From the NCBI GenBank assembly GCA_038889075.1, contig JAWAHS010000016.1, forward strand, positions 4,064 to 16,088: a DNA stretch of 12,025 nucleotides, written 5' to 3'. Position numbers and translations under genes: made by a program. The stretch comes from Ignisphaera sp. (GTDB lineage Archaea > Thermoproteota > Thermoprotei_A > Sulfolobales > Ignisphaeraceae). Shown here in pieces: positions 247-11,435 of the stretch (within the stretch, counting starts at the first letter, position 1; every line of letters starts with the position of its first letter). The notes beneath the pieces were generated by a model, which was given only the letters and a program-made list of their open reading frames with translations, did no database searches and had not been told where the DNA came from.

Positions 247-1341
247 CTAGGTCAAAACCTTTTCTATACTACTCCTTTCTACAGCTAACCTTATCTCCCG
301 TGCTATTCTTCTACCGGTGCTCATAGGCTCGCTCCAGTAGAGGAAGGAGTAGGGGCTACCATAGATGTAGAGGTTGGTACCAGCGACTATTCTGCCGGAG
401 AACTCAAAGACTTTGATATTCATATCTCTATCAATAATGCTTTCAAGACAGAATGGCCCTACTATACCAGATTTAATGTACTTCTTGGCTGTTTCTACGA
501 ATTTTATGCCATACTCAAGTATTTTCGGTAGCAGGCTTTCCCTAAGCACGAGAGGGATATTTCCCACAACGGTGAAGGTAGGATCTAGGTCTAGCTCTAC
601 TACATATTTTGGCGGTAGCCTCCCTACACCATCTATATCTGATTCGTATCTTATGTCCGCGCTTAGTATCTCAACTCTATCTAATATTATACTGTAGAAG
701 TAGTGGTAGTAGGCTGTAGCACCTATTAAGTATTCCTGTATCACGACCTGGTCGAGGCTTTCTATAACACTGCTCTTCAAATACTTGTTGAGCTTCTCAA
801 TGATCTCCTCCCTCGATGTGGCTAAGAAGTAGCCCCTACCCCCCTTTGCACCAGGAAGCTTAACTATTACAAGCCTATCGATTTCATCATTTAGTGTGTA
901 TATCTTTGGTATAGGTATACCAGAGTTTTTGAGGAGCTCCATCTTCTTATGCTGATCAGCTTCGATGGAAAACATGTAGCGTGATCCAAATATCGGTATA
1001 GGGATGGTCTCAGCACAACTCAGTCCAACATACTCTACATAGCTTCCGTGGGGAACTATAATGCTGTACCACTCTCTAAGCTTTGAAACAACATCTTCTC
1101 TACAGAGATCTCGCCAACTATCAACAACTATAAAGTTGTCTATAAGATGGGAAAACTGTCTGTAAAACCATACCCTATCCCTCAACGTAATAACAGCTGT
1201 TCTAAACCCCTCTAGCTTTGCACCATGGACTATCTGCAACGATGAATGGCTTGCCAATGTCGCTACAGATAGCCTATCCACATCATATTTAGCTACAATA
1301 GACCCTATATCCAAATCCTGCACCAGATCATCCCTCAGCAC
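247..1341 (-). CDS. purP: FAICAR synthetase (5-formaminoimidazole-4-carboxamide ribonucleotide synthetase), ATP-grasp PurP family, canonical type I-like
   Basis: Motifs ASHSSLQI, PHGSYVEY, glycine-rich loop GAKGGRGYFLA, DIRYES, VVGNIPLVLRESLL, GPFCLES, FEFSGRIVAGTN and GRRIAREI. The GTG start (1339-1341) overlaps the end of purB by 7 nt. Confidence 0.92.
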   Translation of the reverse strand: MLRDDLVQDLDIGSIVAKYDVDRLSVATLASHSSLQIVHGAKLEGFRTAVITLRDRVWFYRQFSHLIDNFIVVDSWRDLCREDVVSKLREWYSIIVPHGSYVEYVGLSCAETIPIPIFGSRYMFSIEADQHKKMELLKNSGIPIPKIYTLNDEIDRLVIVKLPGAKGGRGYFLATSREEIIEKLNKYLKSSVIESLDQVVIQEYLIGATAYYHYFYSIILDRVEILSADIRYESDIDGVGRLPPKYVVELDLDPTFTVVGNIPLVLRESLLPKILEYGIKFVETAKKYIKSGIVGPFCLESIIDRDMNIKVFEFSGRIVAGTNLYIYGSPYSFLYWSEPMSTGRRIAREIRLAVERSSIEKVLT

Positions 1342-2678
1342 AAAGTCAGCACATTTTTCACATAGTTTGCAGTTCTTTCAATAAGCTCTCTATAGCATCC
1401 AAGGTAGCTGTTGTAGTCGAGTATTTTCTCAAGCTCTTCACGTGTAAACAGCTTGGAGATCCTCTCATCCCTTAGAAGCCTATCCAAGAAGCTCTCCCCT
1501 TCGTTCATAGTTGTGGATAGCTCCTGAAGTACTCTATGGGCTTCATGTCTATGCATACCTTTTTCAACCAGTTTAACCATAACAGCTTCGGACATGGCTG
1601 CTCCTCTTAGCAGCATGAGGTTTTTCTTCATAGTATTCTCATCTATGCTGAGGATTGTTAGAAGCCTCTCCATATCCATAAGCATTTGATCTATTACGAG
1701 AAAAGTGTGGGGTAGTAGAATTCTTTCACTGCTACTGTTTGTAAGATCTCTCTCATGCATTAACGGTATGTTTTCGAGAGCTACTGATACAAAGCCTCTT
1801 AGGACTTTCGCTAAACCCGATATCCTCTCAGCTATAACCGGGTTCCTCTTATGAGGCATGGTGCTACTGCCAATCCTTTTAACAGCCTCGTACACCTCTC
1901 CTATCTCAGGTCTGGAAAGCTCCCTAACCTCTAGGGCAAATCTATCCAATTGACTTGCTAGAATGGCTAGGTTAGCGACAAGTTCTGCAAATCCATCCCT
2001 AGGAGCAACCTGGGTACTTATTGTGTGAGGATCAAGCCCTAGGTACTCCATAGCATACCTCTCTACAACCAGCCCCTTATCGCCCCATGCAGCCATAGTT
2101 CCAACAGCTCCACTCATCTTCCCTTTAACAACTCTCTTCCTACATTCACACAGCCTTTCATAGCTTCGGGAGAACTCGTAGGCATAGTTAGCTAATTTAA
2201 AGCCAAATGTTATGGGTAGTGCGTGTTGTCCATGTGTACGGCCGACCATTACCACATCGGCATATTTTATAGACATATCCACAATTTTTTCAATTATATG
2301 CTTTAGCCTAGCTAAGACTATGGAAAGGGCATCCCCTATCACTAGAGCCCATGCTGTATCGACAATATCGTAGCTTGTTGCTCCTAGATGCACGTATCTA
2401 CCGCATTCACCACACCTCTCTCCAAGGATGTAGGCTAGGGATGCTATATCGTGGCCCAACTCCCTTTCCTTCACATATACATCTTCAGCCGATACCTCTT
2501 CGCTACATCTACTGATGGTATCGATGCATCTCTCTGGTGCTATGCCTGCCTTCGCTAAACTAACGATTAGAGCCTTCTCTACCTCAAGAAATCGTTTGAC
2601 TATGTTATCAGATTTGAAGAGGTTTCTCATCTCCTCAGATCCATACCTCCACTCAAGTACACACATACTGCTACCCAT
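1335..2678 (-). CDS. purB: Adenylosuccinate lyase
   Basis: Fumarate-lyase signature SSTMPHKRNP, plus HLGATSYD, GRTHGQHA, SGAVGT and HERDLTNSS. An AGGAGG RBS (2688-2693) overlaps the upstream gene's TAG. Confidence 0.96.
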   Translation of the reverse strand: MGSSMCVLEWRYGSEEMRNLFKSDNIVKRFLEVEKALIVSLAKAGIAPERCIDTISRCSEEVSAEDVYVKERELGHDIASLAYILGERCGECGRYVHLGATSYDIVDTAWALVIGDALSIVLARLKHIIEKIVDMSIKYADVVMVGRTHGQHALPITFGFKLANYAYEFSRSYERLCECRKRVVKGKMSGAVGTMAAWGDKGLVVERYAMEYLGLDPHTISTQVAPRDGFAELVANLAILASQLDRFALEVRELSRPEIGEVYEAVKRIGSSTMPHKRNPVIAERISGLAKVLRGFVSVALENIPLMHERDLTNSSSERILLPHTFLVIDQMLMDMERLLTILSIDENTMKKNLMLLRGAAMSEAVMVKLVEKGMHRHEAHRVLQELSTTMNEGESFLDRLLRDERISKLFTREELEKILDYNSYLGCYRELIERTANYVKNVLTLC

Positions 2679-2691
2679 AGTCCGCCGCCTC

Positions 2692-3807
2692 CTAGGTCAC
2701 TATCTCCTCAAGGCATTCCATATGTAGGCAATCCCTAATCTCTATAGCTATCCTCCTACCCATGCTAATCGGTTCACCGAAGTATAGCTTGCTGTACTGG
2801 CTCCCTATACCCATGTGGATATTTGTTCCTCCACCAATCCTAAGAGCTACATCGAATACCACTACATCCATATCTGGTGTAACCATCAGCTGTAGGGTGA
2901 AGGGTCCTATAACACCCGGGGGTTCAATTCTTATAGATGCTTCCACAAACCTATCACCTATATCAAACAGCTTCTCAAGCATGCTCTCCCTAATGGTAGC
3001 CATTTCATGTCCTATCTCTATCATCTCTACATCTATGTACTCCTTAAGCTCGATCTGAACATCTGCCGGAAGTCTTAGAAATCCATCGAGATTCGTTTGT
3101 ATTCTCCTATCGATACCTATTATCTCAACGTCCTTTCTAGCTACAGTTCTAAAGTAGTTTACGTTAAAGTGGGAACCCACCACCAGCTCCTCTATAGATG
3201 CTCTATGAAAATCCTTCTCATCTACAATTCCATCCGATGCAAGTTTCCTAAACTTCTTCCAAAAATCATCTCTATCGATAGCTATGAAGAATCCTCTCTC
3301 AACCCTCTTCCTAGCATGGGGCATTTTAACCATAACAGGCCTATCTATTGCATCAGGCGATTCGAATATCCTGGGCCTTCTAATCCCTGCTTCATCGAGT
3401 ATGCTATAGTATGTTTTTTCTCCAACTCTCTCCTCGTATTTCAGGAGATATCTATTGCCGAAAATTGGTACAGGAAATCTATTCTCAATATTTTCGTAGC
3501 CAACATATACAGAGAAACTTCTATTGGGAACAAATACAGCATTTCTAGACCTTAGAATAGATACAACATCATCTCTAACTACATCTGCAAATCTATCGAG
3601 GATAACCGGGTAATCGACGACCCTTCTAAACCTAAGGTAGGGCTTCTCCCTACCTTTCTGACATACAGCTATCGTTTTAAAGTTCTCATCCTTAGCTCCA
3701 TCGAATACATCCAGTGCTGAATGGCTTGCAATTGTAGCTATATGAACCGATTCTACATCCAGTCGATAGTTCTTCACAAGATCTCTAGGACTGTACCTCA
3801 AATCCAA
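2692..3807 (-). CDS. purP: PurP-like ATP-grasp paralogue (divergent type II-like; DUF1246/DUF1297 domains)
   Basis: Motifs ASHSALDVFDGAKDE, PNRSFSVY, DRRIQTNLDG, IRESMLE, GPFTLQ, DVALRIGGGTN and MGRRIA. The Gly-rich loop is replaced by HARKRVERGFF. TTG start at 3805-3807 with a GGTG RBS at 3816-3819. Confidence 0.88.
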   Translation of the reverse strand: MDLRYSPRDLVKNYRLDVESVHIATIASHSALDVFDGAKDENFKTIAVCQKGREKPYLRFRRVVDYPVILDRFADVVRDDVVSILRSRNAVFVPNRSFSVYVGYENIENRFPVPIFGNRYLLKYEERVGEKTYYSILDEAGIRRPRIFESPDAIDRPVMVKMPHARKRVERGFFIAIDRDDFWKKFRKLASDGIVDEKDFHRASIEELVVGSHFNVNYFRTVARKDVEIIGIDRRIQTNLDGFLRLPADVQIELKEYIDVEMIEIGHEMATIRESMLEKLFDIGDRFVEASIRIEPPGVIGPFTLQLMVTPDMDVVVFDVALRIGGGTNIHMGIGSQYSKLYFGEPISMGRRIAIEIRDCLHMECLEEIVT

Positions 3808-4167: not shown

Positions 4168-4256
4168 CTGAAAAAGAGTTGTTGGTATCGACACTAACAG
4201 ATCTCTGTACATCTGTTGAATGTATGGAGGCATGGCTTGGTGTAGGGGTGGCTGTT

Positions 4257-5483
4257 ATGGATATTGGATATAGAGAAGCTCCTAGCAGTATTGAGATGCT
4301 GGTGAATCTATTTAGAAGCAATCTGCCTCTCGTTAGAACACTGGTTTCAAAGATTAGATCACTGACTCTAGAGGTTGGGAAGAGGTATGGTGGGGATTCC
4401 AGATTTAGAATAATGGATTTCTGCGGTACACATGAATGGACTATTACCCACTTTGGAATACGTAGTTTGATGCCGCCTGCGATAGAGCTTGTAGCTGGTC
4501 CTGGATGCCCAGTCTGCGTCACACCATCGTATTTTATAGAGGAGGTTGTAAAGCTGGCTTTGGATGGTGTGACTGTGTATACATATGGTGATGTGTATAG
4601 GCTTAGAGCTATTAGATCGGTAAAAGGGGCCTACTCCCTTAGCGATGCTAGAGCTCTAGGTGCTAGTGTAAAGATTGTGACCACCATACTTGATGCCATT
4701 AGAGATGCTAGAGGTGGTAGAGGTAATGCGGTATTCGTGGGTATAGGATTTGAAACGGTAGCACCAGGGTATGCACAGGCTATAGACAGAGAACTTATAC
4801 CAGATAATCTAAGGTTTCTAAGCCTTGTCAAGCTCACACCCCCAGCAATGCTGTACTCAATAGGTGTACTGAGGGAGAGATCTGGAGAACCACCGGTAGC
4901 CGGTATTATAGCACCTGGCCACGTATCCACAGTAATAGGGGCTAAGGCTTGGGCCCCCGTTTCTGAAAACTATGGAATTCCCGTTGTAGTATCGGGATTC
5001 GAGCCAATAGATGTACTCATATCCATAGCTGAGATCATGAGGCAGCTAGCTAAAGGAGAGGCTAAAACAGTTATAGAATACACAAGAGCAGTAACGTGGC
5101 ACGGTGATTTGAAAGCGCAGAAACTGATTGCCAAAATCTTCGAAGCCGTTGATGATGCATGGAGAGGTATAGGATTCATATCTAAGAGCGGTCTAAGGCT
5201 TAGAGATAGCTACAGTAGATACGATGCCTTTAGAGAATACGGAATTAGGGAACTAACACCTGAAAACTGGAAATACGACCTCCCACCAGGCTGTAGATGC
5301 GGAGAGGTCATCATCGGTAGGGCAAAGCCTACACAATGCCCACTATTTATGAGGAGCTGCACCCCCAGCACACCCATAGGACCCTGCATGGTATCCATCG
5401 AAGGAACCTGCTCCATATGGGCAAGGCTGGGGGCGGGAGGACTAGCTGACGAAATTGCTAGAGAACTAGGGTTATCTCAGTAA
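4257..5483 (+). CDS. hypD: [NiFe]-hydrogenase maturation protein HypD
   Basis: Motifs FCGTHE, GPGCPVC, GFETV, PGHVS and GFEP, and the C-terminal Fe-S/thiol cysteine region CRC...CPLF...CTP...GPCMVSIEGTC. ATG 4257 is preferred over TTG 4179 because it has a GGGGTG RBS at 4245-4250. Confidence 0.95.
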   Translation: MDIGYREAPSSIEMLVNLFRSNLPLVRTLVSKIRSLTLEVGKRYGGDSRFRIMDFCGTHEWTITHFGIRSLMPPAIELVAGPGCPVCVTPSYFIEEVVKLALDGVTVYTYGDVYRLRAIRSVKGAYSLSDARALGASVKIVTTILDAIRDARGGRGNAVFVGIGFETVAPGYAQAIDRELIPDNLRFLSLVKLTPPAMLYSIGVLRERSGEPPVAGIIAPGHVSTVIGAKAWAPVSENYGIPVVVSGFEPIDVLISIAEIMRQLAKGEAKTVIEYTRAVTWHGDLKAQKLIAKIFEAVDDAWRGIGFISKSGLRLRDSYSRYDAFREYGIRELTPENWKYDLPPGCRCGEVIIGRAKPTQCPLFMRSCTPSTPIGPCMVSIEGTCSIWARLGAGGLADEIARELGLSQ

Positions 5484-8641: not shown

Positions 8642-8699
8642 GCATTTAAACAGGACATAAGTAATAGTGATGTGGAGTATTTTGTTAAGGTTGGACTTT

Positions 8700-9773
8700 A
8701 TGAGGCATGTTGAGCTAGAGTGTATAAGCAAGAGGTTTGGGAGCACCATTGCTGTAGATAATGTGAGTTTGAGTGTTAATCTCGGTGAAATATTTTCTCT
8801 GCTAGGTCCAAGTGGCTGTGGCAAGACAACAACCCTTAGAATTATTGCAGGTTTGGTTAAGCCTGATAGTGGTAGAGTCTATATAGGTGGTAATGATGTC
8901 ACCGATATACCTACTGAGAAGAGAAATGTTGGTATGGTCTTTCAAAACTATGCACTATGGCCTCACATGACAGTCTATGATAACATAGCATTTGGCCTGA
9001 AGCTAAGAAGGCTTCCACAAGAGGAAATTAGAAGGAGAGTTAAAGAGGTCCTAGCACTAGTTAAGCTTGAGGGTTTTGAAAACCGGTACCCCACACAACT
9101 TTCTGGTGGACAGCAACAAAGAGTATCACTAGCAAGAGCTCTTGCACTAAATCCTGAGGTTATACTATTAGATGAACCGCTGAGTAATCTCGATGCAAAA
9201 TTAAGAGAAGAATTGAGATATGAGCTGCGAACTCTACTCAAATCTCTAAAAATAACATCAGTTTATGTTACACATGACCAGCTAGAGGCTTTAACGATAT
9301 CTGATAGAATAGCTGTTATGAACCATGGTAGGATAGTTCAAATCGGTACCCCACGGGAAGTATATGAAGAGCCTACAAATAGATTTGTTGCAGCATTTAT
9401 TGGGGAGAGCACAATCATTGAGGGGAAGCTTATCGATGTAGAGGATAACTATGGTGTTGTAAAGCTTAAAGGCGGTATTAAAATTAGGGGAAGAATACCT
9501 CGTGGAGTTTCGCTAACCCGTAACAGCGATGTTATGTTGATTATAAGGCCAGAGGCCATACATGTCTCGGAGGAAACACCTGGGGAGAATATACTAGTGT
9601 GTAAACCTGTGAGAGAAATATATATTGGGGAGAGAATTGAATATAGACTTGACTGCGAGGGTTATGAATTGAAACTAAAGTTGCCATCCAATAAACCACT
9701 GAGTATGGGTAGTGAGATTAGCGTCAGCCTTGATTCACAGCGTACAATAATTGTTGGGAAAAAAGAGGAGTAG
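8700..9773 (+). CDS. ABC transporter ATP-binding protein (PotA/MalK-like, with C-terminal TOBE domain)
   Basis: Walker A GPSGCGKT, Q-loop VFQNYALWPH, signature LSGGQQQR, Walker B ILLDEP, H-loop VTHDQ. ATG 8700 (MRHVEL..ISKRFG) fits the usual N-terminus better than GTG 8667. Confidence 0.95.
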   Translation: MRHVELECISKRFGSTIAVDNVSLSVNLGEIFSLLGPSGCGKTTTLRIIAGLVKPDSGRVYIGGNDVTDIPTEKRNVGMVFQNYALWPHMTVYDNIAFGLKLRRLPQEEIRRRVKEVLALVKLEGFENRYPTQLSGGQQQRVSLARALALNPEVILLDEPLSNLDAKLREELRYELRTLLKSLKITSVYVTHDQLEALTISDRIAVMNHGRIVQIGTPREVYEEPTNRFVAAFIGESTIIEGKLIDVEDNYGVVKLKGGIKIRGRIPRGVSLTRNSDVMLIIRPEAIHVSEETPGENILVCKPVREIYIGERIEYRLDCEGYELKLKLPSNKPLSMGSEISVSLDSQRTIIVGKKEE

Positions 9774-9893
9774 CCCACCTACATGTGGCTGTATTGTCGT
9801 AAAGCATATTAAAGGCCATACCAATTAATTTAAGGTTCCACACAAAGGTTATAGACGGTGGGTATAGTTAGGCAGAACTTATTGTGGTGCAGC

Positions 9894-9956
9894 GGCTGTG
9901 ATGAGCTTTCGGTCGCTGTGAATAGAAGAGATGTACTGTATTCCTCCCACTGAGCC
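9894..9956 (+). ncRNA. Box C/D 2'-O-methylation guide sRNA
   Basis: Perfect box C GTGATGA (9898-9904) and box D CTGA (9950-9953), closed by a terminal GGC/GCC stem (9894-9896/9954-9956). D'-like GTGA (9918-9921) follows a 13-nt guide, and a degenerate C' lies near 9924-9934. The roughly 60-nt size and intergenic position are typical of archaeal C/D sRNAs. Confidence 0.8.
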
Positions 9957-10036
9957 ATCCCTCCTTGGATGCCGATGCACCATGGGTGCTATCCATCTGT
10001 TGCTGGGATACCTTTGTTTAGCTCTCTATCGGCACG

Positions 10037-10050
10037 TTCTTTTCTTTTTT
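10037..10050 (+). terminator. Archaeal oligo(T) terminator candidate (TTCTTTTCTTTTTT)
   Basis: 14-nt pyrimidine/T tract downstream of the ATPase gene and sRNA, just upstream of the next promoter. Confidence 0.5.
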
Positions 10051-10064
10051 GAATTGAATTGTGT

Positions 10065-10082
10065 AAAAGGGTTTTTAAAGTT
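10065..10082 (+). promoter_or_regulatory. Putative BRE/TATA promoter of the DUF4038 glycosidase gene
   Basis: Purine-rich AAAAGGG followed by TTTTTAAA, about 82 nt upstream of ATG 10164. Bases 10068-10082 are identical to 4153-4167. Confidence 0.55.
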
Positions 10083-10163
10083 TTTGGCACCCGTAATTAT
10101 CAATTGAATGCTCAGAAGATTTACAAGTTCTCTAGCGTATTTTCTCCGTGAAAGTGTGTAGCT

Positions 10164-11435
10164 ATGGGAAGGCTATATATTTCTGGATCCCGCGACTACT
10201 TTCTAAGAGATGATGAGAAGTTCTTCTATCTTGCAGATACCTGTTGGAGTGCCTTTACCAATGCATCACTTGATGAGTGGAGCTATTATCTTGAGTATAG
10301 GAGGATGCAGGGATTCAATGCAATTCAGATAAACATTCTCCCTCAGCACGATAGAAGCCAATCCGGTAACCATATAGAGCCGTTCGAAGTCTCTTCGGAC
10401 GGTGGCTGGGATTTTAGGAGAAGGAATGAGAGGTACTTTGATAGAGCTGAAAAGATGGTTGGGATGGCTGTTGAGAAGGGCTTTACCCCTGCCCTAGTAC
10501 TTCTGTGGTGCAACTATGTTAGAGGTACATGGGGCTCCAACATAACGCCATCAAAGATCATCCCAATAGAGTATGTAGGGGAGTATATAGAGTATGTGGT
10601 GGAGAGATTTGGGAAGTACAACCCCATCTTTATAGTAAGTGGAGATACCAACTTTGAAACCAATGAAGCCATAGAGTACTATAGAACCGCACTGGAAATC
10701 GTTAAGAGTAAAGCACCAAATTCTCTAACCACCATGCATCTAATGGGGGGACTAATCCTACCAGAGGTATTTGTAAAGTCACAGCACCTAGACTTCTACA
10801 TGTATCAATCGGGCCACACCAGGGAGAGGCAAACGCTAGCATTCGAGCTTGCCCAGAAACACTACAGCATGACCATCAAGAGACCCATTGTTAACGGTGA
10901 GCCCTGCTACGAAGGGCATTCACACGGTGGAAAGTATGGAAGATTCAATAACTTTGATGTTAGAAAGGCTATATGGCAGAGCCTATTGTCAGGGGCTAAG
11001 GCTGGGGTAGCCTATGGAGCCCACGGTATATGGAACTGGCATGTAAAGGGAAGTAGATTTATGGGGGAGGCATTCTCGGGAGAATCCTACGATTGGAAAA
11101 CAGCACTTAGATTCCCTGGAGCATTCGATGCAGCATTTGCAAAGTGGATATTTGAGAGATATGATCTATTTGATATAGAGCCTGCAAACGATAAGCTTCT
11201 ATACAATACAGGTTCAGAGATAAGGGTCTCCATGTCTAAGGATAAGATAGTGGTCTACTCACCATATAACTGGAGCATAAAGCTGAAAATAGATGGAGGA
11301 ATGTACAGGTGGGAGGGTATAGAGCTTGAGTCCAGAAGGGTCTTCAAGCCAAAGATAGAAATCTCAGGAGACTATACTATAGTAGAGATGTCCGAATTCA
11401 ATAGCGATAGCATTCTGATAGGCATAGCCCCATAG
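10164..11435 (+). CDS. DUF4038 / GH140 (apiosidase-like) glycoside hydrolase, cytoplasmic
   Basis: Motifs FFYLADTCW, YLEYRRMQGFNAIQ, YFDRAE, IFIVSGD, LDFYMYQSGH, PIVNGEPCYE and SGA..GVAYGAHGIW are characteristic of the DUF4038 TIM-barrel domain. No signal peptide is visible. The substrate cannot be determined from sequence alone. Confidence 0.8.
   Translation: MGRLYISGSRDYFLRDDEKFFYLADTCWSAFTNASLDEWSYYLEYRRMQGFNAIQINILPQHDRSQSGNHIEPFEVSSDGGWDFRRRNERYFDRAEKMVGMAVEKGFTPALVLLWCNYVRGTWGSNITPSKIIPIEYVGEYIEYVVERFGKYNPIFIVSGDTNFETNEAIEYYRTALEIVKSKAPNSLTTMHLMGGLILPEVFVKSQHLDFYMYQSGHTRERQTLAFELAQKHYSMTIKRPIVNGEPCYEGHSHGGKYGRFNNFDVRKAIWQSLLSGAKAGVAYGAHGIWNWHVKGSRFMGEAFSGESYDWKTALRFPGAFDAAFAKWIFERYDLFDIEPANDKLLYNTGSEIRVSMSKDKIVVYSPYNWSIKLKIDGGMYRWEGIELESRRVFKPKIEISGDYTIVEMSEFNSDSILIGIAP

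Follow-up and report, generated by a model that had tools for sequence, protein, structure and literature searches.

An unannotated, conserved box C/D sRNA gene in Ignisphaera sp. and the predicted targets of its two guides in 23S rRNA

Architecture of the element

We analysed a stretch of 12,025 nucleotides (nt) from Ignisphaera sp. (assembly GCA_038889075.1, contig JAWAHS010000016.1, positions 4,064 to 16,088 of the forward strand), here called the window, in which a 390-nt gap separates two plus-strand genes, one for an ABC ATPase with a TOBE domain (8667-9773) and, downstream, one for an apiosidase-like glycoside hydrolase (10164-11435). Within this gap, at 9894-9956 on the plus strand, lies an element that comparison with related genomes identifies as a genuine, conserved and so far unannotated gene of a box C/D small RNA (sRNA) of about 60 nt, a gene of a well-known kind. 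The D' guide of this sRNA very probably aims at A262 of the organism's own 23S rRNA; the full model that we prefer, in which the D guide would in addition aim at A1808, is given a probability of about 0.5. Among the open reading frames (ORFs) of the window, none of at least 60 amino acids overlaps the element, and an ARAGORN scan of the window found no tRNA.

The string quoted in an earlier description of this DNA, made from its letters alone (the sequence-only reading), is present exactly at these coordinates, with the box C, the box D and the closing stem claimed for it. The element opens with GGCT (9894-9897), the GGC of which pairs with the terminal GCC (9954-9956) in a stem of 3 base pairs (bp), T9897 being unpaired or beside box C. 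Box C, GTGATGA (9898-9904), is followed by the D' spacer and guide, GCTTTCGGTCGCT (13 nt, 9905-9917), which pairs with positions 258-269 of the own 23S rRNA, and by a variant box D', GTGA (9918-9921). The 16-nt stretch ATAGAAGAGATGTACT (9922-9937), placed between box D' and GTATTCCTCCCA, holds a D'/C'-like loop (9922-9927), whose length and sequence vary among homologues, and a degenerate C'-like motif, GAGATGT (9928-9934), with its GATGT core at 9930-9934. The D spacer and guide (9935-9949) can pair with own 23S positions 1805-1814 or, alternatively, 220-227; the part of the guide that precedes box D (CTGA, 9950-9953) is GTATTCCTCCCA, at 9938-9949.

In the consensus, box C reads RUGAUGA, box D CUGA and box D' CTGA. 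The GTGA found here departs from the last of these, keeping the GA needed for sheared pairs, and is replaced by CTGA in most homologues. GAGATGT is the sole candidate for box C', a box left unnamed in the sequence-only reading. The canonical spacing claimed there holds only roughly: 13 nt lie between box C and box D', and 15 nt between the C'-like motif and box D, against a D spacer of 12 nt in most of the 32 aligned homologues described below, across which the D' spacer is ungapped. Archaeal spacers are reported to be constrained to about 12 nt (PMC7229835).

According to the mechanism of the family, L7Ae would bind at two places, the kink-turn that boxes C (9898-9904) and D (9950-9953) make together and, inside the RNA, the weaker pair of D' with the C'-like motif. 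Two fibrillarins and a Nop5 dimer would then assemble on the L7Ae-bound motifs, and pairing of each spacer with rRNA would direct a 2'-O-methyl group to the nucleotide that faces the fifth spacer base, counted upstream from D' or D (the N+5 rule); bases 9913 and 9945, singled out in the sequence-only reading, are indeed these fifth nucleotides. The required proteins are encoded in the host: the gene of Nop5 (C17:10992-11669; PF01798, 250.5 bits) adjoins that of fibrillarin (C17:11857-12528; PF01269, 341.5 bits), and two genes of the L7Ae family were recognized (PF01248, 100.1 and 65.6 bits).

Across the family, 57% of cells pair in the 3-bp register of the closing stem, compared with 45% in shuffled alignments (a value reached by 1 of 500), and the covariation score of the same register is 0.415, compared with 0.248 in shuffles (2 of 500). 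A 4-bp register, evaluated as well, did no better than shuffles. As judged from the alignment, the closing stem is short and variable across the family, and its family-wide support is weak.

Conservation and spread of the family

The 1.95-Mb genome was scanned with a strict pattern (RTGATGA; xTGA after a spacer of 12-13 nt; CTGA 44-61 nt from the start of box C; a 3-bp stem). Four places were selected, the element among them; ten genomes simulated with a second-order Markov model yielded one match, one match and eight zeros, so that the arrangement goes beyond chance. Stronger evidence comes from the conservation described below. The three further matches, on C2 (offset 18512, +), C6 (offset 39376, -) and C12 (offset 22870, -), all offsets being 0-based on the scanned strand, resemble additional unannotated C/D sRNA genes, and one more candidate on C6 (+, near offset 32491) features ATGA instead of box D.

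A BLAST search with window positions 9860-9990, against the own genome (G000) and 40 relatives, aligned only query positions 35-96, corresponding to 9894-9955, in G009 and G012, with 92% identity; weaker matches, restricted to the same span, were found in G015, G016, G029, G007, G001 and G002. In both G009 and G012, the two closest relatives, the glycoside hydrolase gene follows downstream in synteny (84% and 88% amino-acid identity, respectively), so that the intergenic DNA of the three genomes is orthologous. In their alignment, 53 of the 61 sRNA positions are invariant; the count falls to 9 in 45 positions upstream and to 13 in 113 between the sRNA and a promoter-like block of the hydrolase gene downstream. 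All boxes, both guide cores and the GATGT core of the C'-like motif are invariant; variation is limited to eight positions, of which four belong to the loop and two to the 5' edge of the D spacer, the others being the single bases that follow box C and adjoin box D. Conservation of the boxes in related genomes, on which the sequence-only reading had staked its claim, is thus found both in this alignment and in the profile described next.

A search for exact copies of box C plus the D' guide, with one genome per species, gave 72 records, 43 archaeal and 29 bacterial. The archaeal ones are all of Thermoproteota type by title (Ignisphaera, Desulfurococcaceae/-ales, Thermogladius, Acidilobaceae, Pyrolobus, Thermoproteaceae and the like); by our estimate, the bacterial ones roughly equal the number expected by chance for an 18-mer in that much DNA. 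A D guide of the TCCTCC type followed by CTGA is present in 23 of the 43 archaeal records and in none of the 29 bacterial ones. Selection by pattern led to an alignment of 32 distinct full-length homologues (A1), the basis of a sequence-only profile, R1. TGATGA of box C is invariant in A1, in part because the search pattern demanded it, but likewise in the unbiased three-genome alignment. NNGA occupies the D' position in 30 of the 32 homologues, mostly as CTGA, and the C'-like GAGATGT aligns with clearer C' boxes, of the TGATGA or TGATTGA type, in other homologues.

Full-length R1 matches of at least 45 bits were found in 18 of 41 relatives, including 10 of the 17 genomes of the genus. Across the class, 26 of 151 genomes match at E <= 1e-6, distributed over 7 of 16 families; two large families are without a match (0 of 34 and 0 of 25 genomes). 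R1 was not found in G003, G004, G005, G010, G011, G013 and G014, some of which are incomplete genomes. Outside G009 and G012, the genomic context of the sRNA differs. G008 carries, at C8:132783-132833, a second, diverged copy (35.7 bits), and G003:C6:69591-69625 resembles the 3' half only (E 1e-4), is not matched by the profile and may be a remnant or a chance similarity.

In some Desulfurococcales records the same box C and D' guide are fused to unrelated 3' halves (L059/L074/L078, L083/L089/L101 and L056/L084/L093). Being joined to unrelated 3' halves elsewhere, the D' module appears to be more widely shared than the D guide.

Guide targets and alternative explanations

The own 23S gene lies at G000:C19:9891-13080, on the minus strand. 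The complement of the D' guide, GGCGACCGAAAG, predicted in the sequence-only reading, is present in it: bases 9906-9916 form 11 Watson-Crick pairs with positions 259-269, and T9917 forms a G-U pair with G258. By this 12-bp pairing the D' guide would aim at A262 in domain I, the residue faced by the N+5 base T9913 (G000:C19:12819). Pairwise alignment with the E. coli 23S rRNA equates A262 approximately with A251, so that the adenosine of GCG[A]CCG named in the sequence-only reading falls within the range of 240-255 stated there. A complement of at least 9-10 nt in host rRNA is therefore found for the D' guide.

A 12-bp run in the own 16S and 23S rRNAs was reached by 13 of 2000 shuffled D' guides. 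The target is invariant in all 20 aligned 23S fragments and is the best match of the D' guide in 9 of 10 compared genomes, the exception being G006, where the guide has lost one base. Among the 37 tRNAs, no convincing target was found for either guide: a 10-pair run of the D' guide on tRNA-Gln contains 4 G-U pairs and was rejected, as was the best tRNA match of the D guide, of only 6 pairs. Other guides to A223, A262 and A1808 were searched in the own genome with loose criteria, which selected 33, 4 and 29 places, respectively, without any second convincing guide; nearly all of these places are in coding sequence and devoid of a box C, and the search is uninformative. A262 is, on sequence grounds, a well supported target of the D' guide.

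For the D guide, two sites compete. The sequence-only reading had placed its target in domain I, a few tens of nt upstream of that of the D' guide. This complement is real: TTCCTCCC (9941-9948) forms 8 contiguous Watson-Crick pairs with GGGAGGAA, at own 23S positions 220-227, and is followed by a mismatch at guide position 10; T9945 then faces A223 (C19:12858; approximately A213 in E. coli), which precedes A262 by 39 nt. A better fit is offered by domain III, where bases 9939-9948 pair with GGGAGGAATG, at positions 1805-1814, through 9 Watson-Crick pairs and 1 G-U pair (guide positions 2-11), T9945 facing A1808 (C19:11273, about E. coli A1548). The earlier assignment thus holds as regards the complement, which is the ancestral target, though with no more than 8 bp here, against 10 bp at A1808. 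Neither match is significant in a single genome, a 10-bp run in the own rRNA being reached by 208 of 2000 shuffled D guides; for this reason, a comparison was made of 17 genomes that carry the sRNA together with an rRNA operon of their own.

In seven of these genomes (G000, G009, G012, G016, G007, G006 and G008), all belonging to this genus, the domain III site is the best target, with 10-11 bp; guide position 10 is A in all of them, and position 11 is either C or T, each able to pair with the G of the target. Another seven (G015, G029, G162, G122, G078, G095 and G115) have the domain I site as top or tied top, and it comes second in G167; in G038 and G075 the best target is neither of the two, the best match of G038 being a third site. 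In G015, which belongs to the same genus, the domain III site is changed and the guide matches the domain I site perfectly over 11 bp. Within the domain I group, the guide follows variants of the target, as in ...GGAAGAG/CTCTTCC..., ...GGAAAAG/TTTTCC... and ...GGAGAAG/TTCTCC.... These compensatory changes of guide and target in other lineages show that the domain I site is the ancestral target of the D guide.

The same data lend themselves to a serious, if unlikely, alternative: that the sRNA methylates two neighbouring sites of domain I, A262 and A223, the domain III match being a purine-rich coincidence. In its favour, guide and domain I target covary in G015 (GGAGGAAGAG with CTCTTCCTCC, 11 Watson-Crick pairs), in G162 (GGAGGAAAAG with TTTTCCTCC, 11 Watson-Crick pairs; similarly in G122 and G167) and in G029 (GGAGGAGAAG with TTCTCCTCC, 10 Watson-Crick pairs), the domain I site ranks first or tied first in 7 of the 17 genomes and second in one more, and G078, G095 and G115 keep only its 8-bp core match, with no match in domain III. 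The ancestral pair of sites, 39 nt apart, also fits what is described for Pyrobaculum, where most dual guides targeting rRNA aim at sites at most 100 nt apart (Breuer et al. 2021, PMC7994747, citing Lui et al. 2018). Finally, the antisense strand of 23S gives a weak R1 match (E about 0.004) that spans both domain I sites, in the same order and with similar spacing. In this genome, however, the domain I match is limited to 8 contiguous pairs by the mismatch at guide position 10, and all seven congeners with A at that position fit the domain III site by 10-11 bp. Archaeal C/D ribonucleoproteins (RNPs) are described as using no more than 10 nt of substrate, and one reconstituted RNP, that of a thermophilic yeast assayed at 50 C, a eukaryote and not this organism, left a substrate of 8 bp unmodified (PMC7229835).

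On balance, we favour A1808 as the main target of the D guide, which would most likely be reached through the full 10-bp duplex in domain III. With its 8 bp, A223 would be a weaker, residual target in this genome, an ancestral look-alike possibly still used as a secondary one. Rather tentatively, the distribution of the two matches may be read as the outcome of a single-base change of the D guide within one Ignisphaera-like genus, which re-aimed it from domain I to a look-alike purine-rich site of domain III, about 1,450 nt away, the D' guide remaining fixed; the same small ribonucleoprotein would in that case link domain I to domain III in nascent 23S rRNA.

The antisense similarity is not confined to this genome: R1 matches antisense 23S in 9 genomes (E 0.001-0.006), in G000 at C19:12812-12864, corresponding to positions 217-269 or so. 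Both guides have their complements in the matched segment, ordered as in the sRNA and similarly spaced. This could hint at an origin from antisense ribosomal DNA, or simply reflect the two ancestral targets.

Various observations weigh against the preferred model, A262 plus A1808, in whole or in part. At gathering thresholds, no Rfam family matched anywhere in the window; at E <= 10, positions 9780-10170 gave no C/D family and three chance-level matches to vertebrate RNAs downstream of the sRNA. The element thus falls in no Rfam family, which is consistent with its description as unannotated in the sequence-only reading, and the failed search means only that no curated family covers it. A single-strand fold beyond chance was not found for the element (minimum free energy -14.8 kcal/mol, z = 0.51, 131 of 200 shuffles folding as well); the absence of an informative fold is expected for the C/D class, and lends no support. 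Contigs of X20, a standard metatranscriptome and the only RNA run with the locus, are 95-99% alike and cover 9501-9847 and 10191-10400, but not 9848-10190, where the sRNA lies; they are neutral on expression. As to the D guide, besides the lack of significance in a single genome, G078, from another family, carries the identical GTATTCCTCCCA and does not have GGGAGGAAT at the domain III site. This guide variant can therefore persist on the 8-bp domain I match alone, which argues against a clean retargeting. The seven genomes favouring A1808 all belong to a single genus, and a single inherited substitution may account for them. The D half could be weakened or disabled by the degeneracy of the C'-like box and by the length of the D spacer, 15 nt. 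In the own 23S, about 92 consecutive N, at about 1189-1280, shift later positions by about 98 relative to congeners, and a better complement could lie hidden there.

Some of these points would also suit an sRNA that is single-guide in practice, with only its D' half at work on A262, and its D half decaying or orphan and at most a helper in rRNA folding. We consider this rather improbable. Such a state could be suspected from the GAGATGT at the C' position and the 15-nt spacer to box D, compared with a norm of about 12 nt (PMC7229835), from the insignificance of the D-guide match in a single genome (208 of 2000 shuffles), and from the joining of box C and D' guide to unrelated 3' halves in Desulfurococcales records, by which the D' module appears as the stable part. 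Orphan guides are, moreover, reported to be common (292 of 1052 Pyrobaculum guides; PMC6009581). Against this, the D-guide core TTCCTCCC and GATGT are invariant in G000, G009 and G012 while adjacent loop positions vary, a TTCCTC core is invariant across the 32 homologues, partly owing to the selection of rows, and the compensatory changes of guide and target in other lineages indicate that the D guide is under selection there.

That there is no RNA gene at all, and that the boxes and complementarities arose by chance in an intergenic spacer or belong to a protein-binding DNA element, would agree with the lack of an Rfam match and of a fold beyond chance, and is very improbable given that conservation is confined to the 62 nt (53 of 61 positions invariant, against 12-20% in the flanks), that homologues lie in differing genomic contexts across seven families, that what is conserved coincides exactly with the boxes and guides, that 12 bp match an invariant 23S site, that guide and target covary, and that the strict box pattern is rare in simulated genomes.

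Flanking regions, known relatives and significance

The sequence-only reading suggested that the RNA might be processed from the 3' untranslated region of the ABC ATPase gene. This is unlikely as a general mechanism: in G009 and G012 the ABC gene is not found within 1.5 kb of the sRNA, and other strains, sampled in three DNA runs, have unrelated sequence directly upstream of 9895. In these runs (X14, X19 and X1), contigs match the window from 9895 on and are unrelated before it; in X1 both upstream forms coexist, with depths of 21.9 and 11.8 compared with 30.6 downstream. The divergence of the contigs at this point marks a strain-level structural breakpoint exactly at the 5' end of the sRNA gene (9894|9895). 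The sRNA probably does not depend on the ABC ATPase gene for its production. A weak TATA-like stretch, TATAGTTA (9863-9870, +), centred about 27 nt before 9894, is a possible promoter element of its own, and A/T-rich, TATA-like stretches occur 25-40 nt upstream of box C in most homologues; the position of 9863-9870 is not conserved in G009 and G012.

Downstream, G000, G009 and G012 share a conserved block, GxGTTTxTAxAGTTTTT, at about 10069-10085; it lies about 80-95 nt ahead of where the apiosidase-like gene begins, and probably represents the promoter of that gene (transcription factor B recognition element, BRE, and TATA box). An oligo-T run (10040-10050) precedes it. Since the hydrolase gene has this conserved promoter-like block of its own, the sRNA would lie outside the hydrolase leader.

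Elsewhere in the window, two paralogous DUF1246 plus DUF1297 genes flank an adenylosuccinate lyase gene on the minus strand (247-3807), an arrangement that looks like a small purine-biosynthesis cluster, and a HypD hydrogenase-maturation gene is located at 4179-5483.

Eukaryotic small nucleolar RNAs (snoRNAs) of the box C/D class have longer spacers and associate with the proteins Nop56, Nop58 and Snu13. The sRNA described here is archaeal and compact, with two short guides; it shares with them the boxes, the kink-turn, the fibrillarin-type methyltransferase and the N+5 rule (PMC7229835). The closest likeness is to the archaeal dual-guide C/D sRNAs of hyperthermophilic Crenarchaeota, such as Sac sR13, Pca sR30 and Iho sR6 (Dennis et al. 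2015, PMC4644070): in common are a size of about 60 nt, the order C/D'/C'/D if the C'-like motif is counted as C', a pair of guides near 12 nt in length, the aiming of these at 23S rRNA by the N+5 rule and the Nop5/fibrillarin/L7Ae machinery. So is the tendency, described there and by Breuer et al. 2021 (PMC7994747), of one guide to hold steady as its partner drifts or is exchanged. The examples named in the text of Dennis et al. have other guides and targets, and the present element departs in its GTGA at D', its degenerate C' and its long D spacer. In the two reports, the published methylation hotspots are domains II, IV and V, domain I being sparsely targeted (PMC4644070, PMC7994747). The Pyrobaculum families of Lui et al. 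2018 (PMC6009581) are likewise conserved across species, and include cases in which single substitutions weaken or orphan one guide, the partner remaining fixed (sR30).

Thermoproteaceae-titled records contain a related RNA whose D guide has TTCCTCTC, a type of D guide shared by G038. The C/D sRNA and snoRNA families of Rfam 15 share the general box C/D architecture, and none of them matches. A search of the full-text literature for the guide core and its complement returned only an S. acidocaldarius antisense 23S probe and unrelated primers; the supplementary guide tables of Dennis et al. 2015 and Lui et al. 2018, outside the reach of that search, may list one for this 23S position. No paper containing both 'Ignisphaera' and 'box sRNA' was found in the same kind of search.

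Between 52 and 128 C/D sRNA genes are reported per thermophilic species (PMC7994747), and since hyperthermophilic Crenarchaeota carry dozens to more than 100 of them, the finding of one more is not surprising. Most genomes are without C/D sRNA annotation, and it is for annotation that the finding is useful: being conserved across at least 7 families and absent from Rfam, the family could enter curated libraries as a covariance model.

The predictions fall on three named adenosines, A262, A1808 and A223, and the family provides a clean comparative series, in which the D' guide appears frozen on an invariant 23S site and its partner either tracks its target or fits a look-alike site. If the re-aiming of the D guide is true, guide retargeting would have been caught in the act, with a change of both the methylation map and the chaperone bridge. 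The series bears on the evolution of archaeal methylation patterns and on the bridges that sRNAs have been proposed to form as chaperones.

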